From Chrysomallon squamiferum (lineage: Eukaryota; Animalia; Mollusca), in NCBI GenBank assembly GCA_012295275.1, contig CM022669.1:7626001-7690000 (forward strand): a stretch of DNA of 64,000 bases, read 5' to 3'. Positions 1-37,050 of this stretch are shown here, in pieces. The notes beneath the pieces were generated by a model. That model was not told the origin of the DNA and searched no databases. It worked only from the letters and a program-made list of their open reading frames with translations. Numbering within the stretch: position 1 is the first letter of the stretch; every line of letters begins with the position of its first letter. Made by a program: the position numbers and the translations under genes.

Positions 1-230
1 GTGCTTTCTGATTGTCTGCTTTTAATTTCATTAATCATCTCTGTAAATTAAAAAGATAAACTTCCACCATTTCTATAAAATATATGTTAATATTTTAAAA
101 AGTCTAATTCAGATCGAGAATATAAACGTGAAACCTTGCATACATATGCTTGACAACAAACCTGCAAACACATACATACACACACAAATATTTACGTAAT
201 ACATCTTTTTTTTTTTCTTTTTTTTTTTAG

Positions 231-451
231 GACTAGAAGAAAGAAGAAATAAAAGCAGAATAAATGAAGCCAGTGACACAAGTTGTGAACAGAATGGAAG
301 CAGTTTTGTGGATCCGAACTTTTATAATGTTCCTTTCAGGTCTTGCAGAAAGAGTGAACTTCAGCAGAGTAATTCAGCAAATGTGGCTGAATTAAATAAT
401 AATGATAATAATGAAACAGACAAATTGTATAATAACTGTTTTATTATGTGA
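231..451 (+). CDS. Probable terminal coding exon of the upstream TIR-gene paralog (ends ...KLYNNCFIM*)
   Basis: Strong acceptor (T-tract + AG at 229-230); read in phase 1 the frame is open for ~73 codons (GLEERRNKSRINEASDTS...NNCFIM*). The homologous acceptor at 7841-7842 follows the TIR gene. A non-coding 3' UTR exon is not excluded. Confidence 0.4.
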
Positions 452-522
452 AAAACAACAAGTATTTTAGAGTCAGTTCTGGTGTATTTTTTATGTATTA
501 TTATGCTTTCGTTTTTATTTAT

Positions 523-558
<36 letters not shown>

Positions 559-1239
559 AACCCACAAATATCTACTATCTGTGTATACCATAGTTCCCAT
601 TTTAAGGCATTTAGGACAAATATCCCCTAAAGTGCAATTTTTCCAATTAGATTGATGATCATGTGTGATTTTTGTCAGCATTCTAGTACACAAACAGCTT
701 TCCTTTTAATAATTTAAATAATAAGAGGAAAGAATAATTTATAAAGCTGTCTAGATCACAAAACATAAAATGATATTTTTTTTTTTGACTAACACTTCTT
801 TGTCTCCATCACTTACCCATGAAATGCTCTGAACTGCAAATGCTTTTTGTTTTCCAATGTTTTTTTTTCTTGCATCAAACAGTTTCAACTAAATTAAAAA
901 GTGCATCTGTGAATCTTTCAAACAAAGTGTAAAAGACTTGTGTATGCCTGCACATTAACACCTACACCATTTTTCATTGACTAATTTTTAGTGCATAGAC
1001 AACAGAACAGATTTTACAGAAGTTTTAATATTTCCTGGTGCATTTCCAAGCTTGAAATCATGTGATTTCATATATATAATTTTATGTTGCCTTATTAAAG
1101 ATCATATTAAAGCTTTTTTCTGAAGGTGTGATCAGCAAATTAGTAGTAGAAGGAATAGTAATCATCAAAAAATGAAAGTAATAATAATAATAATTCTGCT
1201 TATGTTCATAATAAATACATTTTTACATTGTTGTCATTA

Positions 1240-1252
1240 CTACTACTACTAC

Positions 1253-1315
<63 letters not shown>

Positions 1316-1318
1316 CAT
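1240..1318. repeat. (ACT)n(ATT)n microsatellite
   Basis: Directly visible. Similar tracts: (AAT)n 24321-24400 and 55720-55980; (ATT)n 28606-28730, 36876-36950, 48387-48435; (CT)n 35476-35525, 36432-36489; (CA)n 22617-22742, 42913-42995; (TA)n 46312-46365. Confidence 0.95.
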
Positions 1319-3099
1319 TGATCGTGACTTTAATCATGTTTAAAATGAATTCTGAAGCTAAAATTTGTCAATTAATACTATAACAAAAATTAAAAAGTAA
1401 ATGCTGATTTATACATTTATTTAAAACACATGGGTGTGTATGTCTGTGAATGTGTTGAAAATGTCCAACAAATGAATCAGCAGTATTGATTTAATTATAT
1501 TCTAACAATTACATAAAGCAACATTTTAATTTTTATCGTTTTCATTGTTGGGGGTTTTCTTGTGGGGTTTTTCTTCTCCACCCCCCCCACAATTATTAAA
1601 TATGATAACAGAATTTTGCAACTTTTATATAAATTTACCGTGTGTAATTATACTTAATATATAATGAATGTAAAATACAATTTTTTGCTGTATGTGTGTG
1701 TTGTTTATTAAGGAACAGTTGATGCTTCTTATGAAGAAAAAGAACATTGTATTAATATGTTAAACAAAGTTTTTATTACAGCGTTAACTGTAAAAATTGT
1801 GGAACTAAATTATCAGTAAGTGCTTTTATCAAACTTAATCGCGTACTGGAATACGTGTATTGGTTCAGAACGTTTTTAAAATTCTAAATAAGTTTCTAAA
1901 ATATAAACCATATATATAATTTTTTATAATTGAATTTATTGATTCGTTTTGTACATTTAAGATGTATTTGAGGTAAAACAGAAATAGTGCTTATTGTAAA
2001 TAGCAAACCAAGATCATGTTTAGAGTGTTGCTGGTTCAAAACCTGTTAAATGTTACATTTGTGATGAAAGATATTGAGTAAAAGAAATATATTCAAAACA
2101 TTTTTTCTGCTGCATTTGTTGTTGGTTTTTTTTTGTTATGTGTGTGGGGTTTTTTTTTTTTTTTTTTTTTGCTTACTTATGGGTGGTGCACAGTCAAGCT
2201 AACTTACATTTGCTTTCTCATTCACTTAATCTATCAATGTGTAGACCAGTGAGAAGAAACAGTATCAATATGATCTGCATACTTACAATTTTCTTTATTT
2301 AGTTAAGTTCTAACTCTCACTATATACTCACATTAAATAGGAATTTTGTTATAGAGTAAAATGTTAATGATGTGTAGGTGTGTGGTAAATCTTGATTTAT
2401 GACAGTAGCTTCATAGTTTATTTAATTGAATTTTCAAGTATCTTATAAAGTTACAATGTTGAAAGGAATATTAAAATTGTGATAAAATCAATGCCTTATA
2501 ACTAACGTTTATTTTAGCAGAAAATACAGCAACACTCCTCAGTTTAATGTTGCAAACTGTCAGCTCAAACAGTCATAAAAATCTCTTTATACATTTAACA
2601 CAAAATATACAAGGAACATTTTGTTTTCAAGACTTTGATTACTTTTAACTGCTAAAATTTAATACTGTCAAAAATAGATAAGCGAAATTATGTGATATAT
2701 TCTAGAACTGTGTGATAATCTCTGATAATTGAGCTAGAACACTGAAAGTCAATTCATTTGTATAGAGAAGCTCTAATTTTTCCAAAATTAAATAATAAAT
2801 AAATAATAAAGAAAATGTAATTCTTCATAAACTTTGTATTTATTATTATTATTGTTATTGTTATTGTTGTTGATGATGATGATCACCTAAGCTCATTTTA
2901 AAGACCAAAATGATCATTTGGGTAAGGAATGATTTGCTGTTTTCTTTTTATTCCTTCTACCCAATACCTGTTACATGGTTCACCGGTGACAGCACATCAT
3001 TTTTAAGCAAAATAAAGAGGATAAACATGAATTGACACGCTTTATTAATATTTGTGATATATAAAATTATAAACTTAAATTAGTCTTGATGCTTTCAAA

Positions 3100-4343: not shown

Positions 4344-7134
4344 ATGGATTATAGTTCAAGTGAGGAAATCGCTGAAGATGCTGTTTTAGATAACAGTAAG
4401 TAAACAGAATTAATGTGGTGGTGTCTATTAAAAAAATATTTTTCCTTATTTTTCTGGCTTTCTTTTGTAATTATTTTTTCTTAGTTGAAACACTGCTAAT
4501 ATTATTTCACAAAATACTGTTGTTCTGATATTTTCTGCTCATTGGTGAATACTTCTTTCACTTTTAAATTTCTTTGATCATTTTCTTTTGTGATTAACAT
4601 GCTTGAATCTAGATAGAACTGTTTAAAATGTACTCTACCTCAACAAGTAGGCTACCTATCTATACACTATGTATTTCCAAGTAACTGCTTAGTCCTCATA
4701 ATCATTATTTACTACTAATAAAGTTTGACAATAATATGATAAGATTTAGTGTATGTTTTTCTTTCATACAACTTCATATATGAAAAGTATTGGTTATGTC
4801 TTTTCTACTTTGCTTATATATATCAAACCTATCAAATCTTATATATATATCAAACCTATCAAATCTTGTATATATATCAAGCCTATCAAATATAGTTATT
4901 ATTTTTAGTTCAGAAATCTAAAACAAATATGGATGCTTCTTATTCCTTATAATTAATTATGTGTAATCTTTGAGGATAATAATAAAAACCAATATTTACT
5001 CTAATCTAACTTGTATTTCTTTATATTTGTGTTTCAATAGGTGATAGTGGATTTGCCAACAACACGTCTAGTTCACACCAACATTCTGCACATCCTCAAC
5101 CAGCTAGTTTAGAAGAAAATGTGTCTAGTTCTAATAATTCTACTGTTTCACCTCCTGACAATGTATCCAGTGCATCCAAATCAAGTTTGGACTTTCTAAA
5201 TGAGTCCTACACTGATGAAGAAGTGCAGGAATACATTTGGATGATGGATTATGATCTTAAGGAAGAATTCCATGATATTCTGGTTTTGTTCTTTGAAGAT
5301 GATGAAAATCTTGTAGAGGAGTTTTGTAAAGGTCTCAATAAGATATTACTCAAGAAACAAGAAGCCCCCTAAAGTTATAAAATTGTCAGATTTTGCCCCT
5401 GAGGTAACTTCAAGAATTAAGAATTTAGAATTTGCTCTGGAACGATGTACTTACATTTTTCTGTTTCTTACAAAACATTTTGTAAATGATACATGGACTG
5501 AGTTTTCTGGTGAAACTTGTCTAATGGAGGCCATAAACAATCCAGAAAAACGATGGTGTGTGGTGCCAGTTTTCACAGAACCAAAGAGAAGCTGCTCATT
5601 TAAAATACCTCCAAGTCTGAATTCTCTGAAAGGAGTCCAGTACTGGAATGGTCCTGATGACAAATTCTACAAAGAATCTGTGAAGAACATTTTAGATAGA
5701 AAGCTGCACATTCGACTGAGAAATGAGGACAATTTAATGAAAAAGAGAAGGAAATGGATTAAAGACTTCAAGACTAAGAAATACTTTAGACAGAAACAAG
5801 AAGAAGAAAAACAAAAGCAGCAACGTCAGATGCTTGAAACTCGGATTAGCTCAACTCTGCATTCTAGGTGTATTAATAAACAACAGTATGAAACTATGTA
5901 CCCATGTGCAGATCCCAACCACATTTATCCAGTTGCTGAGTCAAGGGAGGATGGTGCCAGAACCGAAGTACAGGTGGTCCTGCAAGGGTCTAGCAACTCT
6001 CAAAGTTATTCTGAAACAACACATAACAGCCTTGATCCTAGTATTTCTGAAGATGCTGCTTCACGGAGTATGCTACAACAGATACAGTTAAATCAAGGAG
6101 CAGTTCAACAGAATATGTACTGTAATATACCACAGACACTAATGTCTCATAGTCCTCTACCAAGTTACAAACCTCAGTCATCTGCTTCTCAGTCAGAAAG
6201 TATGATGCCAGACAAAGATATATATAAGGAGGCTAAACAAATACATATCCATAACTATTATTATCCACCAGCTTCAGAACAGAAACCTGTGAACATAATC
6301 CAGCCAAAGTATGTTCAGATTGGAGATCACAATGTTGTGGTAGGTGTTAATGATTGTGAGGAAAGCACAAACAGTCTTATAAGGAGAGTGACCAAAGTAT
6401 ACAATCCATGTCAGTCGGGTGAGTGGTAAATACACCTGCATTTACACCATTATACTTTATCTATAGTTGTTCCACAGTAAATCTGTGGACAGATACTAAA
6501 AGCAAGAGAACAGTGAAAACAAAATTAATTCTGCTTGGATAAAATATTCATTAATACTTAATTAATATTTTGGTGAAATTAATACAACTTTAATTAAATC
6601 TAAAACCTAAATTTAGCAGAGCAAATTAATACAAGGTTTTATGTTCAATTTGTTGCAGGGCAATAGAAAATCTATACATACCAGAACAGCCTCTGGCTGC
6701 CACTGCAGTGTCAGCTGTTTCTCAGGACAACCTGCCCAGTGACAGAAATGTAACCTATTCACCTCAAACCTGTGTTAAGAACACAGGAGAACCTGACTTG
6801 CCTAACATGGCACCTGAAGCACTATAAGACCCTGCTGCTGCACCTTTCAGATCCACAAACAACTCTTCATTACCTGCTATCACAAAACCTGTTTGCATCA
6901 TACAGCCATTTAATGTAGAAGAAATGAATACCAGAATTTGCTTTCCAAATTCTGAAATTCAGTCTACTCCTAATCCACTAGGAGAACCGTCAGAGAAAAA
7001 CTTTGATGATGATGAAGATGATATCAGACTTTACTGACACAACATCATGTACATACGTATAAGTCCTCACTGTGATTCAGCTTGAATCTGCTCTAAGCTT
7101 TCACATACATCTTTTCCATCTGTGACCACAGTAG
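4344..7134 (+). pseudogene. TRIF/TICAM-like TIR-domain adaptor with C-terminal RHIM; frame-disrupted (probable pseudogene copy)
   Basis: Exons 4344-4395 (MDYSSSEEIAEDAVLDN), 5041-6418, 6659-~7134 with GT-AG borders. TIR: EEFHDILVLFFEDD...LSDFAPE...ALERCTYIFLFLTKHF...WCVVPVF...LNSLKGV. RHIM-like VNIIQPKYVQIGDHN (6289-6333). Lesions: +1 shift at ~5355-5372, -1 shift at ~6378, in-frame TAA 6825-6827, TGA 7035-7037 and 7083-7085. Confidence 0.75.
4813..4893. repeat. Short tandem repeat, 3 copies of ~26-29 bp (CTTATATATATCAAACCTATCAAAT)
   Basis: Directly visible in the intron following the first coding exon of the TIR gene. Confidence 0.85.
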
Positions 7135-8402
7135 GTGATGGTCAAATCCTGATACTACATCAGACATTTCTGTAATCTATATTTATATTTTTAATATAGT
7201 ATATTACAGAGTTGTTTCAGTAAAATTTACATCTTTAGTATAAATCACTTTTTGTATTTTATATATATATACTGTGAGATTGGTTAGCTGTAGAAAAATG
7301 GCCTATTTAATAGTAATTGCGGTTAGACACACCAGTGATACTTTTTTTTAATTATAATTCTATAATGTGACACCAGAAGAACAAAAGATAAGATGTGTGT
7401 GTTTGTGGATAAAAACCTTTCTATCAATAACTGGACATTAAACAATAATAACTATAATTGCTCTTTTTTCTTTTGTTTTTTCCTGCTAAAATGTTTAAAC
7501 TGTTTGCACCATCGCCTCTACAGTTTGAAAAAGAAACCAATAGTAAAACAAATGATGCATAAATTTGCTTCTAAGCTTGTTTTAACCATTAACCTAATTA
7601 TAATGTGCTTTCTGATTGTCTGCTTTTAATTTCATTAATCTGCTCTGAACATTAAAAAGATAAACTTCCACCATTTCTATAAAATATCTGTTACTATTTA
7701 AATTAGTCTATTTCAGGTTCAGAGCATAAACATGTAGTCTTGCATAGATATACATGTCTACACACATGCAAACACACACATAATCGCACACAGAGAAACA
7801 TACAACAATACAGTGCTCTAAAGCCTTTTTATTTGTTTCTAGGAATAAAAGAAGAATAAATGAAGCCTGTGACACATGTTGTCAACAGAATGGAAGCAGT
7901 TCTGTGGATCTGAACTTTCATAATGTTCCTTTCAGAGAGAGTGAATTTACGGAGAGTAATTCAGCAAGTGTGTGAACATATTTTTTCAGATTTGATATAA
8001 ATTACCCTTATTTAATTACAACTTAAAAATAATGAATGTAAAGATTATTTGTTGTTGTGTGCGTGTATGTTTTGTTTATTAAGAAATAGTTGATACTTTG
8101 TATGAAGAAGAAAGAACATTATAATAACATGTTAAAAAAAGTTTTTATTATAACGTTAACTGTAAAAAATTGTGTAACTAAATTATCACTAAGCGTTTTT
8201 ATCAAATTTAATCGTGTATTGGCATAAGAATGGTTCAGAACTTTTTAAAAATTTTAATAATTTTCTAAAATATAAACCATATATTCTCTTTTTTATAATT
8301 GAATTTAGTGATTCAGTTTTGTATTTAAGATGTATTTTGAGGTAAAACAGAAATAATGCTTCTTGTAAATAGCAAACCAATATCCTATTTAGAGTGTTGC
8401 TG

Positions 8403-8883
8403 GTTCAAAATCTGTTTGGGGGGGGGTGTTTCTTTTTTAATTCTTTATATTTTCTTTAATTTTATTGGCAATGGTACAGTTTACAAAATATAAATACAAG
8501 GAACAAAAACAGAAAATACTCACAGAATGTATAACAATTATTTACAAAAAACACATGGGATATTTCACAACAGAGCTCCTTTTTTACCTGATTGATATAT
8601 CTGCATGGTTATATTAAATATACATTATTATAGATACATTTAAAAACCAGTTGATTAAAACAACTTTAATTAAAAAACGAAAAAAGAAAACTGAGACAAG
8701 GAATACTTATTCAATGGCTTCTAGAACCGCAACCAAGAGGCACCACTTTTTAATATGATCCTCCCCTTGCAAATTTATTTGTGATATTATTTTTTCTATC
8801 ATATAATAATTTTTTTACCATGGCTATCTATAATGCTTGTGTAGCTAACACTTCACGATCATTTCCTTGTTCAAAATCTGTTT
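8403..8883 (-). mobile_element. Possible retroposed insertion (~450 bp) between 15-bp direct repeats
   Basis: GTTCAAAATCTGTTT at 8403-8417 and 8869-8883; the enclosed DNA is absent from the paralogous position (~2034-2047); T-rich left end with TTTATT (AATAAA on - strand). Confidence 0.4.
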
Positions 8884-9831: not shown

Positions 9832-12800
9832 ATGGCAGACTCCGTGGAGAAACTCATGACAAAAGCTATTGACCAATATTTAAAATTATATCAAAATCCT
9901 GAAGATTTTTTCAGGTAATATACGCTTTTTAACACATATATAGAATAATTAACTTCCTATTAAATGCTTTTAATTTTATTAATCTGCTCTGTACATTAAA
10001 AAGATAAACTATGCTTATTTAAAGCTGATATTTATTATATGATAATAATGCAGCATGTTTCATGTTATCTCTGATCTCAAGACAAGAGACTAAGCTAAAG
10101 TGGTAACTAAGTAATAGAACGGGAGAGGTAGACAAGAATGGCACTTGCTGACACGTGTGTGTGTGTGTGTGCACGTGTGTGTGTGTGCGTGCGTGCGTGC
10201 GCGTGTATGTGTATGATTGTCAAGTACTGATTAACTGTTTTACTTTAGTTTAAGATTAGTAAATATATTCTAAATATCTGACACCTTTAAACCTAAACTG
10301 CTAAAGATTATCTATCCTTTTATAATTAATTTCCTAAATTTTTCTTTTCTTAAATTACACAACAGACACTACCGAACACATACCCACTCATATTCATAAA
10401 ACACTGTGGTCATGCTGCAGTCAGAAATGTTAAAAATAAGTACAATATTTATGTTTTTCAATTATAATTAATTTTACTTTGTAGTGTAAACAAGAAGTTG
10501 GCTACTGGTTTAAGAAACACAACCAAGTCAATATATGAAATAAACAAAACCCAGAACTTGGTTCCAAAAGTTGGTTTACCAGAACTCATCATTAAGAATT
10601 TTGATGATGAACAAATCTGGCAGCAGCTTGAACTGAGAAATGATTCATCAGTCCCGAATTTATTAAATGATGTTGCCAGGATTGTTGCCAGTACAGATAC
10701 ACTAACTTTTGAGGCATGCAGATCAAAAGATCATGAAAATAAAATTAAAATTGCCACCAATGGAAACATTTCTGATGGTGATGTTCCTGATTCAAATGTT
10801 GATTCAGAATCGGACACAGACACAGAACTGACACGAATCAGAAATCGCATCTCAGAAATAGAAAATGATGTCACTGAGGGTCAAGGATCAGATAGTGAAT
10901 TAGACTTCGACTTTAATGTGGATGATGATGTTGATATGAATGATGATGATGATGATGATGGTGATAGAGATGAAGAGAGAATGCATGATGATGAGGGGGA
11001 AGAGGAAGAGTTAGAATCGGAGAAGAAGCAGAAGAAGAAAATATCATATAAAAGTGAGGTAGATGACAAGTTCTTCAAGCTGTCAGAACTGGAAAACTTC
11101 CTGGATGCTGAAGATGCAAAAGAAGAACGAAGACAGAGAAGAGAAAGGCAAGGAGGTGATGGTAATGATGAAAATGACGATGTAGAAGATGATGAGGATG
11201 ATATTGATATGTTTCAAAACATGTCATCATCAGATGAAGAGGTAAGTAAACCACATTTATTTCAGTGGAATAAATAACCTAAATGGCAACTTTTCCTTTA
11301 ATTTATTAAATTAAAAAATATATATTATTATTATTATTTATCTTCACCATTATTGCATTTGACTGGGAATAAGTCCAGGGAATAAAAAGCTTTTTGATGA
11401 ACAGTTCAGTATCAAATAAAGGGAACTGACTCAGAAAATAAAACAACAGGAAAAGGTGTTCATATTCTCCTACACTGTGCGTTTTTTACTTAGATCCCTG
11501 GGGCAGTGGTTTTTCTTCTTTTTTTCTCTCCTTTTATTTCCATTATTATAATTTATATATTATGATTTTTTTGGGGTAGCCTGGCATATTCACAGATTTG
11601 ATCATGATTGTTAAAAGTGAAAAATCAAGGTGGACTTATTCACAAACCTATTCCAAATCAGTAAATCAGATACATAGTATCATAACATAGTCTGTCAAGC
11701 TATTATATTTGTCTTCAATATATCATGTTGTTTGCAGGAAGGTACAGCAAGGAATTTGAAATATGAAGATTTTTTTTACCCTCCTGATGAAGATGAGAGT
11801 TCTAAAGACAAAGTAGAAACTTCAGAAAAAACATCAAAGAAAAATGTTTCCTTCAGCAAAGATGTGGAAGAGTAATTTTATTTTTATTTCTAACTCTCGG
11901 TATACCCTCACACTGAATAGAAATTATGTGATATATTGCAGAATTGTGGGATGAGCTCTGAAAATTGTCCGAGAACACTGACATGAAAGTTAACTGTCAT
12001 TTTTATAGAGTAATTTTCTTTTTTCTGAAAAATAAAAAAAATAAAAAATAAAGATCTAACCCTTTATAAACTTTGTATTTATTATGATTATTATTATTAT
12101 TATTATTATTTCATTTTTGTTTTAGAAATAAAGGTGTAAAAGATAAAAAACAAGAAAATCCATTTGATTCTGATAGTGATGGTGAAGATGTTACCAACGT
12201 CATTGGTGGCAAGAAAGAAAACAGTCTGTCTTCTTATGAAAAACGTCAACAAAAGGTTTTTCCTATTTTACTTTCCAGTTCTAGATATAGATCTTTTTTC
12301 ATAAATTAATTGTTGTTTGTTAGACGCACAGGGAGAATAGCAATATGAAATGTGTTTGTACAGAGAGATGCAAGAACTAAGCACTGAATCCTGAAACTGA
12401 AGGAGCTTGCTTCAAGTTGTATTAGTGGAATGAAAAAAACCTGTTACATGTTTCTGTGTAGACACTAGATATAATTTCTTTAAACAGCTAATACAGATTA
12501 TTTTTCTTTCTTCTTATTTGTAATTTGTTTTTCAATTTTTTTTTTCAGTTTTTAAGACTGTGATTGCAGATAAAATGTAATTTATATAAATCTTTTACTT
12601 GGTTTTATATATTTATATTCAAAATTTATTTAAAGTTGAAGGCAAAGATAGCCAAGATGGAAGATGCCAGTCTGTTGGAGAAACCATGGCAACTGTCTGG
12701 AGAGGTGATAGCCAAGGCAAGACCAGAAAACAGCTTGTTGGAGGAGTTCGTTCAGTTCGAACATACAACAAGACCAGGTAGGTCATTCAAAAATAAAATA

Positions 12801-15800
12801 AACAAAGTGAAATAAAATACTGAAAACATTCATATTATTATTTATTTCTTTTTGAGAAAATTGTTTTATTTATTCTGAAAATGTTTATGGTTTTTCAAAC
12901 TAATTACTGACAATAGTTGATTAATATAATTTATATGTTTTGCTTGGAAGTTGGGGGGGAGTCTGATCTGACCAGAACTGGAAAATAGATACGATAGTGT
13001 TTCCACTTTATTTATCAACTGCTTTACTAATGGCAATCATGTAATCTCTTCGCAGATACTGAGTGGTTCATATTTCATTATTTGTCATTTTTATTTTAAT
13101 TTTAATTATAGCTCCAGTAATTACAGAAGAGACCACTAAAAGTTTAGAAGAGATCGTCAAGCAAAGAATTAAAGATCAAGTAAGTTAATATCAGCATCAC
13201 ATTTACTGCCATTGCATGTTAATGTGTACGTGAGTTTGTGTTTGTGTGTCCTGTTTTGATTAGTAATGAAGTGTAATAACAAAATAAGGTGGGTATTTTT
13301 AAAAATATGTTTGCTGCCACTTTTCTGATGTCACCACATAGACAGCAGCTGATTTTTGTCAAGTGTTGTCAGAAAAATATACAACTACGTGAACAGTGAC
13401 ACCACCACAGATTAAAATGACAGCATTTGGGTATTTTGTAATAGTGTTATTTTACTGACATACTTTGATACACGAGTTATGATAAAATAATAATCTATTT
13501 GTGTAGTCCTGGGATGATGTTGAACGTAAAGAGAGGAAAAAAGAGGATCCATTTGAATACAAGAAAAAACTAACACTGGACATGGAGAAAAGTAAGATGT
13601 CTCTGGGCGAGATCTACGAACAGGAATATCTCAAACAACAACAGGTTATTATCATTATTATCACTATTATCACTATCATCATCATCATCATCATTACAGT
13701 TATTGTTACTGTTATATTTTTTACATTGGGAATAATTGTGATACATTTTACCATTATAGAAATATATTGCTTGTTATCTTTATTAGAAATATAAAAATAT
13801 ATAGTATGTTTTACATTAGTATTATTTAATATATTTAGAAGTATTGGATGCATTTTATCATTTTTTTTTTTTTTATTTGAATCTTGTATTAATAATAAAT
13901 AAAATAATATAAACAAAACTATACAGTGATTGATTTAATTTACCATTATTAAAATATATTTGTTATAAATTTAGCACTGAATTATTTTATTTGAAATATA
14001 TTTCAGTCAAAATCGTCAGTTTAAAATTAACCAAATAAATTTTTTTTACGGATTTAGTTGAAAATAAGTTAATATCTGAGTACTAATACTGTACAGTAAT
14101 TTATTAAGATTAAACAATATGTACATATGTTATTAAGAACTTAATGTGAAGACTGGAATGTTTTGGGTTTTTTTTCATTTAAATACATCAATAAATCGTT
14201 AAATCAATAAGTCGTTAAAAAATATTTTTGACAGTAGAAATAAAATAATATTTTAGAACTGTATCTAAACCTGATTTACTGTGAAAACTAAGATCAATTT
14301 ATATAAAAAAAAAAATAGTAATTGTTTTATATTTAAAAAACAAATAGGTATTACAAAATAAATATAAAATATATATAAGATGATTTTAAGTCTTGTTTTA
14401 TGTTATAGAAAGAAGAAGAAGACAAAAAGGATCCACAACATGAAGACATTAAAAAGATGATGACGTCATTGTTTTTAAAACTCGATGCCCTCAGCAACTT
14501 TCACTACACCCCGAAACAGGTTTTCTGTTTACTACTTTGCTTTTGTCTGCAAACAACTTAGAACTAATGTGGTCTAACCCTCAGAACAGTGATATTGAGA
14601 TCATCAATACTGAAATTATTAAATTACCTTTTAAAAAAAAAAAAAAAAAAAAAAATATTAAAAAATAATTAATGCTCACAAGATTGCTCATGAATCCAGT
14701 TAAAGGTGTTGAACAATTCAGGTATTGATGGAGCTTATCAGAATCTATTTCTTATTTCTTTATGGTGTGACTATTCTGTTTTCAGACTGCACATTTACTG
14801 TTTTATTATTTGGTAAATTTTAGTGTCAAAAATATGTGTTAAAATATTATTTTTTGTCAAAATAAAACAATATTAAAAATTTCACTCTTACATTTTTGGT
14901 AATAATATTGGTACATGCAGACAGTCAGAATGTATTATGTAAACTTTAGTCTATTTTAGGAGTGCTATAATCAGCCTATATATACTTTGTTCATTTTAAA
15001 TTAAAATTATACATTCAAATGATAGTTTTATATTGTTTTAAATTTTACCTGTGGTTTTACTAACAAGTCATCTTAATATATTTTGCATATTTGTGATTGT
15101 TACGAGTCTAGATACATTTCTTTATTAAAATATGTCACCACCAGTAAGCATTATGCCTGAAAATCATTTATACTTTTTTTTAATTGACCTTTGTTCAGAA
15201 TTAAAATTTTGTTAATTTTCAGTCTGTTCCTGAAGTGAAGATTGTGTCGAATCTGCCTTCTATAGTGATGGAGGAGGTAGCTCCTGTCAGTGTCAGTGAT
15301 GCTACACTCCTTGCGCCGGAGGAGATTCAAGTAAGCATTTATTAATAAAGCACTTAAATAATCAAACATTTAAAATGTTCAAAAACTTGTAATTTTCTTA
15401 CATTTAATACTTTTCTGGTAAAAACAAACATTTTTAATTAATTTTTTTTTTTTTTAAACTCTGCCACAATTTTAATATCACTGGTAAATTTATTTACAAT
15501 TATATTAAAACTGTATAAGAAGTATATTATTTTAATGGCAGTCAAATTCAGTTATAAAATTTAATTCCAGCAGAAAATAATAAAATAAAATATTGTTTAT
15601 TATGAAAAGGGTAACATTGTAAAGCATTGAGATCCACATTACATAACAAAAAATCTAAAATAATGGGAAAAGAAAATCAGGGAATAACAATACATTTTAT
15701 ATAAATTTGATTTCAGGAAAAGCAGAAGGGAGAAGTAAAAGGCAAACTAGAGAAGTCTGACGTGGATCGCAGGAGAGAAAGAAGAAAGAAGAAGACCATG

Positions 15801-16585
15801 AAAAGGCTGAGAAGGATTGAGAAAGAGAAAAGAGAAAAGCTTGTAGAGAAAATGAAGCCTGGTCTTGGTAACAAATACAGCAAAGAGAAAGCTCTCAAAG
15901 ACTTGGAGAAACAGTCCAAACTGTCCAAGAACGTTACTGTCATTAAAGTATGTTTATTCCTTCTTTTTCTTCTCCTCTAATTCCATCTTTATATTCTTGG
16001 TTTAAAGCACATTTGAGGAATTTATTTGGTTCTTTTATTTTTGAAGGATTGTTGAAGTTGTTCTTTTATATTTTTTAATTAATTTTATTTGGGTGGGAGT
16101 AATTCGAGGGTGGTGATGTGAAACTGAAATTATAATAAAAATAAAGAATTTATAGTCCTGTCTCAGTTTCTTGGTTTATACTCCTCATTAACAACTGCTA
16201 GAAATAATGCACTGAATAATAGCCAGAAGTTCCTCTTTTTGTTAAACAAGATTTTAATTTTCTATTAACAGATTGCTTGTTTTTGTTTCTTAAAAAAGAT
16301 TTTTCAGTTGAGATGAATCTGAATATTGTACGTTCTCACAGTGTTATCAGAAGAAAAATTATTATTTAATAAATAACAGAATTTGGAAACAGAAATTAAA
16401 GTAATTTCTAGTAATATTGCTTATCTTAATTATTTCAGGAAAACGGATTCAAAAAGAATGTTGGCTCATCAACAGCATTTTTCACTCAGCTGCAGGAAGA
16501 AGTAACCTCACATATTAACAAGTCAAAGGAAATTAAAAAAAGTAAAAAGAAGGAGAAACCTTCATCTTCAAAACTCAAGTTGTAA
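9832..16585 (+). CDS. MPHOSPH10: U3 snoRNP protein MPP10
   Basis: Exons ~9832-9914, 10485-11241, 11738-11871, 12126-12255, 12636-12777, 13112-13180, 13507-13644, 14409-14519, 15223-15330, 15717-15947, 16439-16585. Motifs [95 protein letters not shown]-terminal KLKL*. Confidence 0.96.
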
Positions 16586-16908: not shown

Positions 16909-19900
16909 TCAGTCTTCCCATGGATTCATGTCTGTGTCTATAGCAATACAGTTGTAGGCAGCATAGCGAATCTTCTCTTCTGCAATTTTAGCACTGAAAA
17001 AAAAATTAAATTTCTTTTAAATGTAAGCCTTGTAACCATCTACATTTCAATATTAATATTAAACGTTTAAGCTGTACAGAAAAACATGGCTCCACTGTAA
17101 AGAAATAATATGTAATTTTGTCTCAGTTAATTACAATGATACTGCATTTGTATAAAGTCAAAAAACTCCAGTTATCACATTGTAATCAAAAAAAAATTAT
17201 TTAAAAAAAAAAAAGAGAAAAAAAAGCTGTTGTCAAAAAATTTAAAAATATCATTTTATTCAAATAAATATATACATTTTAAATTTTCTGTCTATTAATA
17301 ATTATCCAGATATTTCCATCTATTGATAAACTTTAAATGATTTATGAAAAATTTACACTAAAAAGATTATTAATGTGTTTTCAAGTTACTATTTACCCAC
17401 AAAACAATGAAAAAACTTAGTGAATAGATTTACCTTTTCAAACAAGAAATTTAGAGATTATTCTAAAAGGGTTCACATTCTTGCAAAAAACTGAAAAACA
17501 TTATGTTTGCAGTATCTATCTGTATAAAACTTATGTAACACAAACCTTGAATAATATGGTAAATACAGCATATTCCCACAGGTTGAAGATTCAGGGAGTG
17601 AATCAATTGCATCTCTGAAATGAAATATTAAATACATCATTTTTTTTTTTATATTACATTTGGTGTACATTCTAATGCTGGCATATTTGGAAGAATGATC
17701 ATTGCAATTCTTTTGAAAATTAAAATTTATTACAGTTTCAACATGAAGTACATTATAATTAAAATAAGTGAGGATAAAATGCATTTATAATTTAATTTCG
17801 TTTTTCAAAATATATAATCTGATAAAATAGGTTCACAGATTCAGTTTTTATTACATTCTGCCAAACATTCATTGGCAAAAAATAATAAATTATTTAATTT
17901 TAAATTGAAAGCACAAAGTTTAGTTTATGTTTTATTTCTGAAATTTTACCCTTTTCCAGATGATATGTAAAGTGGTGCAGGTAGGCGTCTTCTTCCAGTT
18001 ACAAATCTCAAAAATCTGCTACGATCTTCATTAGAGAACCTTTTTAGTGCTTCCCAAAGATACTTCACACGAATATCATCCTCTTCCAAGTCATCATAAT
18101 GTGCTGAACAGCAGAGTGTGCCAAAATACAATTAGTTTGAACAACTTCTTATCAGTCACTAGCAATTTCAATCGCTGCTAATTAACAATGGAAAACGTAA
18201 TGGTATGTATCTTTCTCAATTAAAAACCTAGATTTTTTTTAAACATTTTCTCATAGCTTCTCTGAAAACAGTGAAAATAACCAGTTTGGTGATCCTTTCA
18301 TCCAGAATATTTAATTAAATAAAACATTATAACTGATAATTATCACAGAAAAAATAAACAACAGTCTTACTTGTTTTTCTAAGAGCTTCTATTGTAATGA
18401 TGGGCTCCCCACAAACTCTGCTCTCAAGTTCTTGCCAGGGCAGTAAATCAAGAACGGCAACAGGTAAATTTTTCATCAAACCTCGCTTGATAGCTGCTAC
18501 CTGTTGATTATATTATAAATATCTGTACACATAACAAAACAGGCAAATAGGATGTATGTTTACAGTTGTTTTTGGTTTTTTTTCGTTTTTTTTCTTTGTT
18601 TTGTTTGCATTTAGGCATCAAAAGAAGGTGTGGAAATGATTTTTTTCTCTCTATCATCTTCTAAAGTAAAATATTATTGCAAATGTTCAACATTATTCAG
18701 TTACATTTGACTGATAAATACTGATTTTCAAAATATTTAAATATTATAAATTTTTGTGTTTTATTTTTTCTATTTTTTATTTGTCAAAGGTTTAAATATT
18801 AACACAAACACACCCACAAAAAATTATCCCAAATCCTTTTGTTTTGTCATTAATATTGCTCTTTTTTTTAATTTACCTTTGTTCAGAATATTGTATGAGA
18901 TTTGACCAGTAACAAATTAAATAATATTTCTAACTCTATACATGGTTTAAAGAACTTTCTCACCTGTTCATCGAATTCTGACATTCTGACCTCACGTACT
19001 TTGTCACAATATTCTTTGCGATCCTCAAATGAAAGAGGCAGGGGGTTTCCATCTGCATCCATCCGCAACACAACTACACTTCCATCACTAAGCAACAAGC
19101 TCCAATGACTGGCAACATCCGCAAATTCTTTTTTTTCCATCATCTCCATGTTATTGATCAAATTTACCTATAATTAACATCTCGTAACTAATTTAAACAC
19201 AACTTTTATGGATGCCAATATATGCAGTCCAAATATATTTTGTACATCTTCAAAATGATTGCTTTAGGCCTTTATTTATATTATAGACCAAGTCTTTGCA
19301 AATGTAAAAGAAATATATATATATAAATGTAATGATTAGTGGAGGCAACCAACTTTTTGAATTCTGAAATAATCACTTTCCATATACACAGTACAAGTTA
19401 AAATGTAAGAGAAAGAAAATGAAACAATTAAAATATTAGGAAAAATAAATATTTGCAATTAAGTTTTATTTTGTATGTTAAAGAATATAATATATTTTCT
19501 GGATTAAATTTTTACACCTGAAGAAGGTTGATAACATATTTTCCTTGTCCCAGTATTTAAAAAAATGAACTAAAAGAAGTTCTCTGACATATGTTTTTTT
19601 TTTCAGTAGGTGTTTTGGAGATCACAAAAACCAGTACATGCTCACCTCTGCAGCATCAACAGAATTGTAATCATTAGTCCACGTAACTGTTTCCCCAACC
19701 AATTTTTTCCACACAAATCTTGGCAGAGACAAAATCTGAAGAAAAAAATAAAATAAATAACAACATTTTTCTTTAAAAAAGCAAAACGATAATTGGCATA
19801 AAGAAACTTTTATTTTATTTTTATTATTTTCAATTATTATAGGTTAATTTTATTTTTGAACACACACACATACATTTATATATAGATATAGATCAATAAA

Positions 19901-22692
19901 CTCTGATTATATCTTTAACCTTTAAATGTAACTGAAATTAACGTTCTGAAAGTATAGCTTGGTACTTGAATAAAAATTAATACTGAATACAAAAATGATA
20001 CAAAATTATTTGTAAATTTACATACTAAGTTTTCTCGTCCCCGGAAACAAGCCCCCATCAACTGGCCAATCCATTCATACTTTTCAAAGTCAACACACGA
20101 GGGATTAGGAATGTAGACATCACAAACAACAGTTCCATCATCATGTCTCTAAGTAACAAATTGTGATAATAAATACGAAAAGTAACATTATCTGTTTAGA
20201 GTACTTTACTACTCTCTAAGTATGATGTCAAATTACAAATATGAAAGAATTACTTCATGCATGTCCATACACATGCACTCATACTTCCACCTATATACAC
20301 ATTTATAGCTAGACTATATGTTTTTCCTGTCACTTCATGTAATAATTTATTACCATATTTGTAGTGAATAAATCCCTATTCTAATTCATCGAATACTGTT
20401 TCATGTTTGTAAATGTATTTATTTAGGAGTCTGTCTGTAAAGTATCTACGTACTTGGTTTGGTGCTCTGATGAAATATGGCAGTGGCATCGGTCCGTCAG
20501 CGCTGGTGGGACATAACTCTTCTGCCAAGTCGGACAAACTATCCCGAAACCCACCTCCCTGATCAATGATCCCCTCTGACAAAAACTTACATTCCCACCA
20601 CTGTTCATAGTTAGCTGGAAATCTTTAAGTATTAGTAAAAAGAAACAAAATTATTTGAAATAATTAGGCAGAATACTTATAAATATGTTGAATCATTTGT
20701 ATTTCATACAATGAGGATATCAAATGGAAATATACATGAATATGTCAAGTGGTATTTGTAAAATGTATCACAATATAACAACACATTTACTGACTAATTG
20801 CAAATAACTATATATTGGTTGTTATAGAGATAACACAGATAGTGTTTATTAACTGAAAGTTGTCTTAAGAAAACCCCAGTGATCCTAGCCCAAGTACAAC
20901 CTTTCTCCCAACTATTCACACAAAAAGTTTAGAAAATGTAAATCAAAATGTATCTTTGGTGCAGACGTAAATCTACTGGTATCATTAGTTATATATTTTA
21001 ACTATTTGAAACTAATGGCAAAGATTAATTATCTTAGTGAATGCGTTACTTAAAAGAGAAAAAATGGAATCATAAACTGATTTACCTGTAATCTAATGGC
21101 TTGGATGACCGATCTCTAGGCTTCAAGCCTTCATAGAGTTGAATAAACACAGTTTGTTTGTTCTGTGGATCCAGGCTAGGGTTGCATCTGTGTTCCATCG
21201 CTGAACGGCGATTTACATAAACTATAGGTTTGTCTGGTGGTCTGAAAACATATTTAATGTATTTTATTCTGACTTTCGATAACTTTCAAAAGGCATTAGT
21301 TATCTTATGAATAAATATTTTAAAATAACTATATTAATCTTTTTTAATCTTTTTATTTATTTTATTTTTTATTATTATTATTGATGTCTTTGGATTTACA
21401 AGAAGAATAAAAATTCTATCTTTACAAAATTTAATATAAATATGTCATATTATTTATACATTTTATTTTTTGTAGATAAAATTGCCCTAAATTTAATCAA
21501 CAAATTACACAACTCACTCATTAACTGTTGCTTTAAGGAATATATCAATAAGAGATTGTTTCTTCTTTGACATTCGCAGAAACTGTCGAATAACCTGAAA
21601 TTAGAAACTTTTAAACATTACAACATATTTTGGGCGTTTCTTTAAAAATTATCACAAACCATATTTTTATAGAAAACAATATTGCTGATATGCATAAACA
21701 TTTAACCTAAGGTACATTTTGCTCTGCTGACTTTTTAATTTATTATTATTACTATTATTTATATATTTTCTTTTTACTTTTCATTTATTTTTATTTTATT
21801 ATTTTATAAATTTGTTTATGATTTTTTTTAAATATACTTTTTTTTTTCTTTGTTATTTTGTTATTTTTTTATTGTCTTTAAAATAATTCTTATATTATTA
21901 TTATTATCTTAGATCAGCCAGTACCTCCAGACATTTGTATGATCCCACAGAAAATTGCCAGGCTGGAACCATGAGATGTAGGACACTATCCAGTATTGTT
22001 ATAAACCTAAACAAAATTGATATGTCTAATTACAACACACACCATGTCTTTTATCATCAGTAACAATTAAATATAAAATATACATGTATTAAAGCACTAT
22101 ATTTCATTTCATGGTGATACAAGATTCAAGTTAATTTTATGAAAACAAATGATTGAAGCAAAATTCCATTAAAAAACCCATGTTACATCAACTAAAACCA
22201 CTAAAGATCAAATCAAGTTCACTTCAGATCCATCACTTAAGTATCCTGGTGCATGTCAATAAGAGAGTAAAATGCTCAAAATAAAAATATGGCAAATATT
22301 ATCTAATGACATACATTCATCCATGCACACATGTGAATTCACTCACAAACATGTACACATGTACAGAGTTAATATGAAACAGGTAGTTTTTACCTCTGTA
22401 AAACAATGGAGCGTCTGTACAGCTGGTCAGGACTATAGGCTTCAAGTATCGGATATCTAACTAGGTTGTCACTTCTGAAGAAATCTCTGTCGAAACCTAG
22501 AGACCTCTCCTCTGTCGATGTTAACTTGATACCTCGTATCCTTGTGTCTATTCCTCCAGCTGTTCATGAAACAAACAGTTAACAGTTTTTAATGCATGTT
22601 AACCAAAACGTATGTCTCACACACACACACACACAAACATAAACACACTCACACACACACACACAAACACAAACACACACACACACACACAC

Positions 22693-22743
<51 letters not shown>

Positions 22744-24327
22744 CTATATATTTACTATTGTGTCTATTCCTCCAGCTGTTCATGCAACAAAAGATTATGA
22801 GATTTTAATGCATGTTAACCAAATCATATATGACACACACACACACCAATATATTATTTTGTCTATTGATCCAACTGTACATGCAACACAAGATTAATAG
22901 TTTTTAATGCATGTTAATCAATACTAATACTAACACACATAAACACCTATGTATTTAGGCTCCATATTTTTCTGGTGACTTTATTCAATATTTTATTATC
23001 ATATTAATACCAACAGTGATGAGGAATAATACCATTATTGTAATTAATTTATCTACTATTACTTTAATCCAGTTTGCAATTTGTATTTACTGTATGTTGT
23101 TTCCAAGTTAAGATTTTGCTGAAGTAATTTCTTCAGAAAAATATGAGTAGTGGGACATAAAATATTTTCTTTGATATGTTTGCCATGTAGCACAGGCTGA
23201 AATGGAATGTTAGTAATAGGCCTCATTAACAGATTTTAATAGATCACCCTTTAAAGCTACAATGATTTCCATATGTTCACTTTTTTGTTTCATTTTTCTT
23301 TTGTTGTTTTTTTTACTGTTAATCTTTAAGTATCAATATTTATTAATAAACATATGCTGAGAAAAACATAACAAAAAAAAAACACTACTGAAGTAAAATC
23401 ATACTTTTACATTCTTTAATTCGAATCATGATGACAGGATAATGTTCAGTTGCTCCGTCAAGTAACAAAATGTCCTGATGTCCTGTGATAGTCCTGAAAC
23501 AATCATAACATACACCAGTAGAAATACTTGTTTCTGATGGTTAACTTGCATAAATAAACTGAACAGTCTGAACAGTAAAAATCTGGTGTGGAAAAATGTT
23601 AAAGAAGTAAAATAATGGCATTATTTCAAAATTAAACTGTGCCCTTGCTGTTGCCAACAAAATATATGAGCATATTTTTCTGTGACTGTTGGCGATTTAG
23701 ATGGGAGGGTTTGTGTTTTTGTGTTTTGTGGGGGTTTTCCCCTGACACTGGACATTTGCTGAAAATAATGAAAAACAATCATACAATAGAAAGAGACTGC
23801 AAAAAAAGAAATAATTAAATAAATAAATATAATGATGGCAACTTTGCTACTTTTTTTTCACTCATATTGAAGGTAAAGAAATGAGAGTAAGTAAATGACA
23901 GAAAACAAAGAGTGTATTTGTTTACATGTTACCCAAAGTCTAATTAAATGCTGTTTCTTAATTAAATCTCTAAAAGATATTATAACTGAGCTTATGTAAT
24001 TAATAAATTAACTGATTAACTGAGACATGACAGTCAAAATATATTTTACAGATATGATTTGAAGAAATGATTTTTCTTGGTTGTGATTGGTCAAGTATTA
24101 TTTTTCAGGTCACAATTGTTTTTTTTTTTTTTTTGGGGGGGTATGTTTTTTGATGATTTTTTTTTTTTTATTTTTTTTTTTTTAAGTATGGTTTTTAACC
24201 TACCAGTCTATATGTACAGTGCTGATTATTTTCAGATTATCTTGTTCTCCACCCTGGATTACAAACCGTGAAGGTAAGTAATTGTCATCACTGCCATCCA
24301 CAGTACAATATAATTTTCTGTAATAAC

Positions 24328-24380
<53 letters not shown>

Positions 24381-26362
24381 TAATAATAATATTAATAATA
24401 AAACAATAATAACAACAACAACAACAACAACAAAAATATATATATGTTTTGTAATTGCTAGACCAAAAAATAAAAACACCAATTTTCCAAACTGTGAGAC
24501 ACTTACTGATTATGAATTAACAAATATTTAAACACTATTGCTAACTATAGAATTTACTTAATGACTGTTCCTTTCTTCATTCTCAGCTGGATCCAGTGCT
24601 GCCCTTGGTTACCATCACTTTCCCAGAAGGTATCATCATTTCCATCAGTCAAGTTTTCAGGGCCATCGTCCTCCTAAACAAAATAAACATCAGACATTAT
24701 TATTATATGTTCAGTTCATATTTATTATTACTGTCAAATAAAATAATATGTAAACATCAGTCATTATGTGTTTAGTTCATATTTATTATTACAGCCAGAT
24801 TAAATAATACATAAAGATCAGTCATTATATAATATGTGTACAGATTATATTTATTATTACTGCCAGATAAAATGATATGTAAACATCTCAATGTCAACCT
24901 TCCTCTCCTTTGAACTAAAGACAACCATTTATTACTAGAAAATAATGTATTTATTTCAAATGTTTATATTAATTAATTTAGCTTTTAGTTATTGTTGCTG
25001 TTGTTGATTTGTTTGGTTTTTTTTTTTTTTTTTTTTTTTAAATCTTCATGTGCACATTATGTGTAAAACACCACAAGAATTCTCTATTTACACAAAATGA
25101 TGACACATCAATAGATTCAACGTATGTCTTGATGGTGCCAAGTTGTTCATTATCAGGTGGCAGATGCTGTGACATCAGCTTGACCAGAGCAACATCGTGC
25201 TCTAGAGTCCAGCTTGGTGGTATAGCTTGCAGTCGAGCTACAGCATCCTTATCAGGCTCATTGACAGGAGATTTATACTTGGGAATCTTCAGAGCATAAG
25301 TTTCAATAACAACATCTTCCCAACTAAGCAAAAAAAAGAATGACATTGAATTAATACAGATGTTTAAACTATTCTTCTGCCATCTAACCTCCTCATTTCA
25401 CAGTTTGTTAATGATACTGTTATTTGGATCAATACCTTACATAAATTAGATATTTTCTGGCAAGAATTTCCTTGATAGTAAAACAAGTTAATAAATGATT
25501 CATAAAAATTAAAAATTAATAATAGAGATCCAAGCAGGAATCCTATCCAGTACTGTAAAGGAAATATCTGCTTAAGCTTAGTATCTGACATTCCCGTCAC
25601 TGTTTCCAAAAAATGAATAGTTATCACCAACACCAAAATATTTAACTGTGGTAAAGTAAACCATACCCAGATATTATACTGGACTGTTACCACTTCTGCT
25701 GTTATTAAAGTATACAACAGAACTAAGATTAGTTTATGTTCATATAATAATATAGTTAATAAGAACACAAAGAATGAACTTGTGTATTTGTTTAATTTAT
25801 AAAATGATAGTTTTAGTCATACCAGTTATTTTGTAATATTATAAAAACCCAAATCAATATTTATTAACTGCTTCTAACAGACAGCACCAGAATGGTACCC
25901 AAGAAATATAAAATGAAAGGGAGTAGGGGAAACTGTTATTTTAGTTACCAGTTAGCAATACGGGAAAATTAAAAAAATAATTAGAATAAAATATATATTA
26001 ATTTCATAATCACACATACACCAGTTGTAAGCAAATAATACATATACATACTTTTGTTGACATTTATCATCTGTAACAGCAACAACTGCCGGGGCTTCTT
26101 CAGTTGAACTGCGACTACTGTAAAGCAGAAGCCAAGCACTATTTTCATAGACAACAGGCTCTGCATTTGGAGTGGCTAAAAACTGAAATTTGAAAAGAAA
26201 AGAATAAAGTTATTTTAGACTTTCAGTGTTTTAAAAAAGACATAAATACCAGTCCAACATTTAACAGTCATTTAATAACAATTTAATTAATTACTGTTTT
26301 CAAATATCCTTTATAAAATCTTCTCCCATCATATATATGAAATTTTAAAAATTTAAAATATT

Positions 26363-26399
<37 letters not shown>

Positions 26400-26821
26400 T
26401 CAAGATATATTATATATAGGTAATATTTAAGACTGAAGTTACAGTGATGATCCCATCCCCTACGCTTTCGAAATCAGTCTACCGGCTGTACATGAATATT
26501 CCCCATTATATTAAATATCCATTTTATAATGTTCTTCATTACTTTCTTTACTGAAATCCATTTTCCACTGCTATTGCAATGTTCTTCTCCACTAGCATAA
26601 AGCAAACTCTCTGGCGTACAAGCGATGTCACCGAGCTTTTTACTTTTGACGTCTGCTTCATGATAAAATTTCAGTGTCGTCTTTTTAGGAGAATAATAAA
26701 TAATTTGACCTGGTACATAACATAAACTTTCCGGCAAAGGTTTTAATTCATGTATGCATTTAATACAATCTTGTAAACATCGAATTCTTGCAAGTTTGCG
26801 CCTTGCTGACGGAATGTTCAT
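16909..26821 (-). CDS. HECTD3: E3 ubiquitin ligase HECTD3 (DOC/APC10 + HECT domains)
   Basis: About 18 exons. N-terminus [31 protein letters not shown]; DOC domain [54 protein letters not shown]; [45 protein letters not shown], catalytic [14 protein letters not shown]; ends DTDMNPWED* (stop 16909-16911). Confidence 0.96.
22545..22945 (-). repeat. Triplicated exon-start/acceptor segment in a HECTD3 intron, interrupted by (CA)n
   Basis: TGTCTATTCCTCCAGCTGTTCATG...TTTTAATGCATGTTAAC at ~22545 (true acceptor), ~22761 and (diverged) ~22860. Confidence 0.85.
24680..24890. repeat. Tandem repeat, ~3.3 copies of ~62-68 bp next to a HECTD3 acceptor
   Basis: AAACATCAGTCATTAT...CATATTTATTATTACTGCCAGATAAAATAATA units. 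Confidence 0.8.
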
Positions 26822-27251
26822 TTTGTTGACATTACTATCACTATTATGCTAAACATCATATACTGACATGCAGAAATGAAAATTTTATTAACGATTGACT
26901 GATATTTTGTAAATAATTATGAAACGGAAACATTATAAAGTAACAGTGTACATTTTGCTTCATTTAATTTTTTCCCTTTCTCGAGAAACACCAAGGCAAT
27001 TTTTAGATTAAAAAAACAAAACAACTTATGCACAATGAAATCATTTCTGCTGTTTTCAAAATGCACACGCTTCATAGCAATTTTTATCGATAAGCATATT
27101 ACAAATGTTGTAAATTTCATTTACAAGTAGAAATCCCAATGTGAATTTTATCACTTTAGAGTAAACTTGTTCCGCGTTTTGACAAGAGCCCTTTTTATTT
27201 AATGTATTTCTTAATCTCTTTTCCTATTTTTGTTCTCTCTCTCTCTCTCTT

Positions 27252-36949: not shown

Positions 36950-37050
36950 TATATTAATTTAATTTAATTTAATTAATTTTTATTTTTAATTTTTAATTTT
37001 TAAATATTTTGGTTTTGTTTTTGTTTGGTGGGCGAGAATCTTGAAAAAGG

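Follow-up and report, generated by a model that had tools for sequence, protein, structure and literature searches.

We describe a gene in a 64,000-nucleotide stretch of the Chrysomallon squamiferum genome (contig CM022669.1, positions 7,626,001 to 7,690,000; hereafter the window) whose product joins a TIR domain of the TICAM type to a RHIM-type motif. The gene family is real and conserved, a TICAM-type adaptor variant with Imd-like features, and homology searches indicate that it is lophotrochozoan, with members in molluscs, a lamp shell, an annelid and a ribbon worm (four phyla). The interpretation we favor, at a probability of roughly 0.6, is that the protein would act as a non-enzymatic adaptor on receptor TIR domains and signal through a RHIM amyloid to a RHIM partner and NF-kB, without MyD88. 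The gene, its splicing, the order of its domains, the affinity of its TIR domain by profile, the conservation of its motifs, and the absence of a catalytic Glu and of a transmembrane helix are established.

Gene structure and the TIR domain

Contigs from public sequencing runs (nine of 11 listed runs, from three studies, contain the stretch, and seven of these were aligned to the window) define a plus-strand gene with three coding exons, whose features are as follows.

4344..4395, plus strand: coding exon 1, with a Met start, 17 codons and one base; an upstream non-coding exon is possible
4368..4391, plus strand: phi-x-x-D↓A motif (IAED↓AVLD), a predicted caspase site followed by a degenerate end resembling an inhibitor-of-apoptosis (IAP)-binding motif, without the P3' Pro of the family
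5041..6418, plus strand: exon 2, encoding a Ser-rich N-terminal part, the TIR, its helical extension, a Q/S/P-rich linker, the His strand and the RHIM
5043..5054, plus strand: DSGF motif, common to abalones, Gigantopelta, Lingula, a chiton and Elysia (6 of 24 named rows against 1.3 expected)
5268..5720, plus strand: TICAM-type TIR domain; an acidic patch follows strand bA, and Ser (5506-5508) stands where a catalytic Glu would be
5720..5840, plus strand: long charged helix continuing the TIR, like that of TRAM and TRIF (helix 166-189 of the L001 homolog model; TRAM and TRIF alignments extend into it)
6241..6264, plus strand: His-rich strand IHIHNYYY upstream of the RHIM, kept in many members
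6289..6339, plus strand: RHIM-type motif VNIIQPKYVQIGDHNVV, with core VQIG at 6313-6324
6659..7037, plus strand: exon 3, a low-complexity C-terminal tail up to a TGA stop, without a CaaX box in the window copy
7840..8068, plus strand: last exon, 3' untranslated; one contig joins 7131 to 7840

The joints seen in the contigs, 4395>5041 and 6417>6658, have GT..AG ends, the GT..AG of the second being read one base further to the right, and the first is present in contigs of three runs (X1, X5 and X9). Runs X1 and X2, labelled 'DNA?', show splice joints and therefore behave as RNA. The gene is expressed, and spliced contigs almost identical to the window exist. Read with X at each break in the assembled sequence, the protein has 601 residues and no transmembrane stretch (highest 19-residue hydropathy, 0.81). 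The preliminary description of this stretch, made from the sequence alone, had confined the protein to 5262..6340. The motifs do lie there, and every quoted string was found in its place, FHDILVLFFEDD in the frame 5010-5372 and DFAP, WTEFS, CVVP, IHIHNYYY and VNIIQPKYVQIGDHN in the frame 5317-6429, the two frames being separated by a +1 indel at 5352-5357; the gene, however, is larger (coding from 4344 to 7037) and as assembled is also broken at 6381 and 6825. Nor had the preliminary description noticed the Imd-like motif near the N-terminus, the breadth of the family or the tandem paralogs. As for the DSGF motif, which we take to be degron-like, a phase-1 intron appears to stand right before DSG both at 5041 in the window and at 669-690 of the homolog L001, where the acceptor is predicted.

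The TIR domain matches Pfam TIR_2 with an E value of 3.4e-4 (21.5 bits, below the cut-off of 28), and its best PDB sequence match is TRAM (E 4e-5). Family profiles, compared in one-way searches against PDB sequences, point the same way. With a 50-row profile, TRAM scored 73-76 bits, TRIF 32-37, MyD88 and TIRAP about 20-21 and Toll-like receptors (TLRs) 15-21. This profile included unnamed rows that could not be placed in a 164-row FastTree tree (five short rows dropped), and a mollusc-clade and a named-row profile were therefore made. The 27-row mollusc-clade profile gave 58-60 bits for TRAM, 13-17 for TRIF, 16.5 for a bacterial TIR and 14 for TIRAP, and the 22-row profile of named lophotrochozoans plus the window gave 50-51 bits for TRAM and 21-26 for TRIF, with no other TIR at E<=1. 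TRAM leads the non-TICAM TIRs by 30 bits or more in all three profiles; narrow profiles matched TRAM alone among animal TIRs, at about 27 bits, and the first named Atlas neighbour was again TRAM (0.87), which we treat as a lead only. The predicted model of the homolog L001 (predicted local distance difference test score, 91.6) has a TIR fold, with TIR matches at Z 13-15 and a root-mean-square deviation of about 3 Å. On sequence, the assignment of this TIR to the TICAM type is well supported, and the domain is nearer to TRAM than to TRIF.

The residue four positions after the Trp of helix aC (W+4), which we take to be the site of the SARM1-type catalytic Glu, is Ser in the window, as the preliminary description had noted; across 163 rows it is Ser in 43% and Gln in 22%, with Glu outside the top five. 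An NAD-cleaving TIR enzyme, activated by RHIM clustering, could draw on the acidic residue that is common at W+6 (Glu 48%, Asp 23%), but the canonical position holds Ser or Gln, as in TRAM, and SARM1 appears in none of the three profile match lists and ranks low in Foldseek, so that we find such an enzyme barely conceivable. The TRAM-like acidic patch of the preliminary description was also recovered: the window has FEDD where TRAM is described as having AEDD after bA (PMC11788365), and the patch is kept family-wide (E 70%, D 91% of 159 rows). The BB-loop string DFAP of the preliminary description is present in the window, but it does not characterise the family, and we reject it as a TRIF-like BB loop, since the loop is variable across a 37-row alignment and differs in its other rows.

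A TIR profile recovered 36 proteins among 6,536 candidates, and all 19 of those with a species name were molluscs. In a 37-row TIR tree, which separates gastropods from bivalves, the window groups with the gastropod Gigantopelta aegis and one unnamed row (support 100/99; 63% identity), its nearest named relative being Gigantopelta; the species is thus a gastropod and not a chordate, the group in which the preliminary description had held this layout to be already known. A HMMER search with a threshold of E<=0.001 returned 285 clusters, 150 of them listed; among 20 looked up, 12 were named, comprising nine molluscs (including a chiton), Lingula, Owenia and Lineus. A single-sequence homolog search gave one match among 109 candidates, and the only hit among 60 stretches of a metagenome scan was the contig of that same protein; this contig stops at a likely splice donor, short of any RHIM, and so does not bear on RHIM loss.

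Members of the family vary outside this core. A CaaX C-terminus occurs in nine of the first 36 homologs, all bivalves, as well as in Lingula, the boxes following basic residues, and a weak UBA match is found in scallops and mussels; the window gene has neither. P0134, from Owenia fusiformis, carries an N-terminal CARD (residues 99-184; Pfam CARD_2, 72.9 bits), then the TIR, then a RHIM-like string, a combination that could link RIG-I-like sensing to the adaptor. In P0140 a death domain (residues 321-384) follows the same TIR type, the reverse of the MyD88 order, and P0057, a member of the bivalve clade, has two tandem RHIM-like copies.

The RHIM-type motif and the N-terminal Imd-like motif

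The VQIG core proposed in the preliminary description is present, and its conservation among homologs exceeds chance. The core tetrad of RHIM, (I/V)Q(I/L/V)G, lies in a disordered region. In the six frames of the window the core pattern occurs four times, whereas the core followed by xxN occurs once, at VQIG; in 200,000 shuffles of the 191-residue tail that follows the TIR, the core arose in 1.1% and the core with N in 0.07%. Searched against 24,736 Pfam families, a 24-residue piece had RHIM as its sole match (13.7 bits of 20, E 0.046). P values computed over 14 rows for the D↓A and relaxed RHIM patterns were post hoc and ignored shared descent, and we relied instead on pre-specified patterns and a held-out test. 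Of 14 rows, one per genus plus the window, eight have the pre-specified core (0.4 expected) and three, those of Lottia, Patella and Dreissena, have a published extended pattern, [IV]Q[ILV]GxxNx[MLI] (PMC9440496; about 0 expected). A profile built from 20 mollusc rows scored at least 10 bits in 23 of 84 held-out tails and in none of 1,680 shuffles. The Lingula copy reaches 19.8 bits of 20 with Pfam RHIM (E 5.5e-4), and the 22-row named profile also matches the RIPK3 RHIM chain 7dac weakly (E 0.47). By eye, RHIM-like strings are visible in Owenia, the chiton, Bulinus and Lineus, and none was seen in Solemya and one Biomphalaria protein. Relative to Gigantopelta, the His strand and the RHIM form a conserved island, with 56% identity over 48 residues in the RHIM block; the Gigantopelta RHIM region gave no usable Atlas match. 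A candidate second RHIM in exon 3 (KPVCIIQPF) was rejected, as it had no Pfam match.

Many members carry, before the TIR, the sequence phi-(S/E)-x-D↓A-V-P, which we presume, from the caspase and IAP-binding motif (IBM) consensus, to be a caspase site that would leave an IAP-binding end. The motif was derived from the first 14 rows (12 of 14). Among the 62 of 132 held-out rows that were long enough, it was found in 16 against 1.9 expected, and its strict IBM form, Asp followed by A-(V/T/I)-(P/A), in 9 (0.7 expected); 5 of the 14 genera of the first set also have the strict form. The same patterns sought after the TIR as controls gave 6 against 3.1 expected for the motif and 0 against 1.3 for the strict form. 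Pro stands at P3' in 45 of 64 sites picked without regard to Pro. In fly Imd, cleavage by DREDD exposes an IBM and K63 chains follow (PMC9496462). From the analysis of the motif, we put caspase release of an IAP-binding end at just short of an even chance for the family as a whole. Pfam searches of the window pieces and of molluscan homologs that carry a RHIM detected no death domain.

Evidence against the adaptor reading and competing explanations

A number of results weigh against the adaptor reading, in whole or in part. Some concern the ancestry of the TIR. The VIA fold search with the L001 model ended in a tie (Z 15.0 for TRAM, 14.1 for MyD88, 13.9 for TRAM and 13.9 for TRIF), Foldseek ranked TLR1 and MyD88 first, and TRIF barely exceeds TIRAP with the mollusc-only profile. 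The TICAM grouping made in the preliminary description is supported by the profiles, which rank TRAM and then TRIF above other TIRs, but not by the fold search. Orthology of the family with chordate TICAM is probable, judged from these one-way profile comparisons. The architecture might instead be convergent: the TIR would be related to TICAM or merely resemble it, the RHIM would have been gained separately in lophotrochozoans, and the protein would work like TRIF without being its orthologue. Besides the tied fold search, this is favored by the shortness of RHIMs and their mobility between immune proteins (PMC4262963), by the other partners of the same TIR, a CARD in Owenia and in P0140 a death domain, which suggest that shuffling is common, and by the absence of deuterostomes, arthropods and cnidarians from the 12 clusters that had names out of 20 looked up (150 of 285 listed, most unnamed). 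However, three independent profiles favor TRAM over non-TICAM TIRs by at least 30 bits, the order of TIR, long helix, linker and RHIM is common to TRIF, molluscs, Lingula and annelid-clade rows, and the remaining 135 clusters may include deuterostomes. We regard convergence as unlikely.

Other results concern the RHIM. The window RHIM is below the Pfam cut-off and fails the extended pattern at its last position, where Val stands instead of Leu, Ile or Met (a variant at 6337 in an X7 contig gives Leu and would satisfy the pattern). A PDB search with the RHIM peptide alone matched none of the RHIM chains. In scallops, mussels and caenogastropods the Gln is lost and the RHIM is cryptic, and 57 of the 84 held-out tails scored below 6 bits, named full-length proteins included; many of these low-scoring tails look like single-exon gene calls that end before the motif.

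The signaling motifs of TRIF are also at issue. Its pLxIS motif occurs in 2 of 24 rows against 2.3 expected, with none in the window, and TRAF6 motifs in 11 of 24 against 13.8 expected; since neither is enriched, an output through IRF is not supported. The N-terminal domain of TRIF had no Pfam match, and the 37-row alignment has no conserved BB-loop Pro, the residue found in the EDFxxPG of TRIF (PMC7075850). The interpretation given in the preliminary description is supported in part. The protein might instead dampen signaling, as a negative regulator or as a decoy for TIR and RHIM partners; inhibitors of this kind, amphioxus TIRA/TIRC and fly Pirk, have been described (PMC6043800; PMC9496462). 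The absence of a BB-loop Pro and of enriched TRAF6 or pLxIS motifs would suit such a role, as would the paralog contigs in which the RHIM stretch is skipped or replaced. Yet the TIR tree of the family tracks mollusc phylogeny as that of an old core gene would, and the conserved cleavage-like motif better suits an activating ubiquitin scaffold; we consider a decoy highly unlikely.

The remaining points concern the window copy itself. Its N-terminal D↓AVL fails the strict IBM form and is without the Pro, its end branch in the 37-row tree is 0.49 against 0.15 for Gigantopelta, and as assembled the gene has three breaks, two one-base frameshifts and one in-frame stop, listed here with the repeat discussed below.

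5352..5357, plus strand: one extra base, a frameshift between bA and the BB loop; not in bridging contigs, in 4 of 4 runs aligned there
6381..6382, plus strand: one missing base, a frameshift after the RHIM; the base is present in five runs (X1, X9, X8, X7 and X2)
6825..6827, plus strand: in-frame TAA downstream of the RHIM, which removes the last 69 residues; other contigs have GAA
1..2047, plus strand: 3' end of a probable tandem paralog, the rest of which would lie upstream of the window; a repeat of 7605-8416; paralog RNA contigs join through the letters at 231-247

Both frameshifts (5352-5357 and 6381) are probably assembly errors, because the assembled bases are not matched by bridging contigs; they may alternatively reflect a private allele, or some of the bridging contigs may be paralogs. 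Around 6381 a contig of run X6 is one letter longer than the stretch, the place of the insertion not being shown, and X5 has no coverage there. The TAA at 6825 is a real variant, present in at least one contig: one X1 contig is identical to the window, and contigs of X5 and X9 have only G. The blocks of exon 3 on either side of this stop match Gigantopelta. These lesions, together with the long branch, the tandem duplicate upstream and the degenerate N-terminal motif, raise the possibility that a real family has expanded locally and that the window copy is one of its decaying paralogs or a pseudogene. Bridging contigs without either frameshift, spliced contigs almost identical to the window, the position of the stop 3' of the RHIM, and a frame change within an exon of a neighboring zinc-finger gene, which suggests assembly indels, all speak for an intact gene, and we judge decay to be distinctly unlikely.

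Window positions 1-2047 repeat 7605-8416 with 77-84% identity and many contigs differ by 5-15%, which together indicate a tandem, expanded family. Paralog contigs join 6062>6712, 6138>6382, 6186>6382 and 6195>6342, including in a genomic run, so that the RHIM stretch is skipped or replaced; with changes of this kind in the 6020-6780 region, RHIM-less paralogs are possible. An intron starts about 94 bases 3' of the stop codon in the window copy, and nearer the stop in a paralog. Transcripts with an intron placed 3' of the stop may be targets of nonsense-mediated decay.

Elsewhere in the window lie MPP10 (10468-15980, plus strand), a gene at 18883-26848 (minus strand) that had no Pfam match and is presumably HECTD3-like, a C2H2 zinc-finger gene (37045-38647, plus strand) whose long exon shifts frame near 37500, probably through another assembly indel, and spatacsin/SPG11 (40112-61715, minus strand), within whose region a 39-base tandem array of about 18-24 copies occupies 49886-50848.

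Proposed mechanism and comparison with known systems

If the protein is an adaptor as we propose, its TIR would polymerise on the TIR of a TLR or of another receptor, in the manner of TRAM and TRIF; the fold-search matches of the L001 model include filament structures. Brought together in this way, the RHIMs would then seed an amyloid with a partner that has a RHIM, such as a RIPK1-like kinase, a step reported for amphioxus TICAM and one to which the His strand might add an extra beta layer. A caspase-8-like protease might cut at phi-x-x-D↓A, and the AVP-type end so exposed would bring in an IAP ubiquitin ligase, by analogy with fly Imd. Membrane anchoring, which TRAM owes to myristoylation, would in bivalve and Lingula members come from the CaaX box. 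Molluscs have FADD and caspases with DED domains (PMC11463336), and Mollusca are said to have RIPK1/3 (PMC13506858).

Most simply, the family and chordate TICAM would share a common ancestor in an early bilaterian. More tentatively, and with odds clearly below even, we suggest that the TICAM-RHIM pathway is older than the protostome-deuterostome split and that the lophotrochozoan adaptor unites Toll and Imd logic in one chain, in which a TRAM-like TIR couples to receptors, a His-extended RHIM nucleates amyloid and a caspase-released IAP-binding end serves ubiquitin signaling, with a prenyl anchor added in bivalves and Lingula. Such a protein would be the Imd-like, MyD88-independent adaptor that molluscs have seemed to lack.

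This would depart from the literature as far as its available text goes. Papers on the subject find no TRIF homolog in non-chordates and have amphioxus TICAM signal through its RHIM to NF-kB (PMC6043800, PMC11788365, PMC9440496, PMC3517549, PMC7075850, PMC6321704), and reviews place the origin of TICAM in amphioxus or have TRIF and TRAM arise in chordates (PMC6043800, PMC3517549). TICAMs are described as absent from Aplysia and oyster (PMC9334734, PMC4346834), and the Imd adaptor as not found in molluscs or brachiopods (PMC9835746). Partial precedents are one weak TRAM match in Mytilus edulis (PMC3308963) and a figure legend that names TRAM/TICAM2 for Chlamys farreri (PMC12521104). RHIMs have been reported in several invertebrates in a text that names neither TIR nor mollusc genera (PMC4262963). 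Our own search of open full text, which excluded supplements, subscription papers and the source paper for the ecTIR-DC families, found no description of a lophotrochozoan TIR-RHIM adaptor. Standard annotation missed the gene because both of its domains, TIR and RHIM, score below their Pfam cut-offs.

A TICAM-type TIR joined to a RHIM across four lophotrochozoan phyla would shift the origin of MyD88-independent, amyloid-based Toll signaling to the bilaterian ancestor. It would also give a specific gene to the question of how the many TLRs of molluscs are coupled to RIPK, IAP and NF-kB, and scallop, mussel, abalone and Biomphalaria are animals in which the proposal can be tested directly.

Among known systems, the ecTIR-DC families resemble this one in being invertebrate cytosolic TIR proteins of unknown function (as cited in PMC6321704). 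Drosophila Imd shares a RHIM-type amyloid motif and an N-terminal caspase cut that exposes an IAP-binding motif (PMC9496462), the latter predicted in the snail family; in contrast, Imd has a death domain, lacks a TIR and is nucleated by PGRP receptors, and we claim no homology. Human TRIF has the same order of TIR, long linker and RHIM and is the second-best TIR match of the 50-row and 22-row profiles, whereas the family lacks the TRIF N-terminal domain, has pLxIS and TRAF6 motifs only at chance frequency, and adds a His strand before the RHIM and a long tail after it. Human TRAM, the best sequence match of the family TIR in every search, has the same acidic patch, the same lack of a catalytic Glu, the same long C-terminal helix and a comparable lipid-based membrane targeting (by the predicted CaaX box of some family members); TRAM differs in having no RHIM, in being N-myristoylated, and in the Pro-Cys of its BB loop (P116-C117), which the family does not keep. 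Amphioxus bbtTICAM belongs to a chordate, and the D↓AVP motif, His strand and CaaX box are not mentioned in the available text on it, from whose description the comparison is made; like the family described here, it is an invertebrate protein that combines a TICAM-type TIR with a RHIM, and it is reported to activate NF-kB without MyD88 through a RIP partner and not to induce interferon (PMC6043800, PMC11788365).

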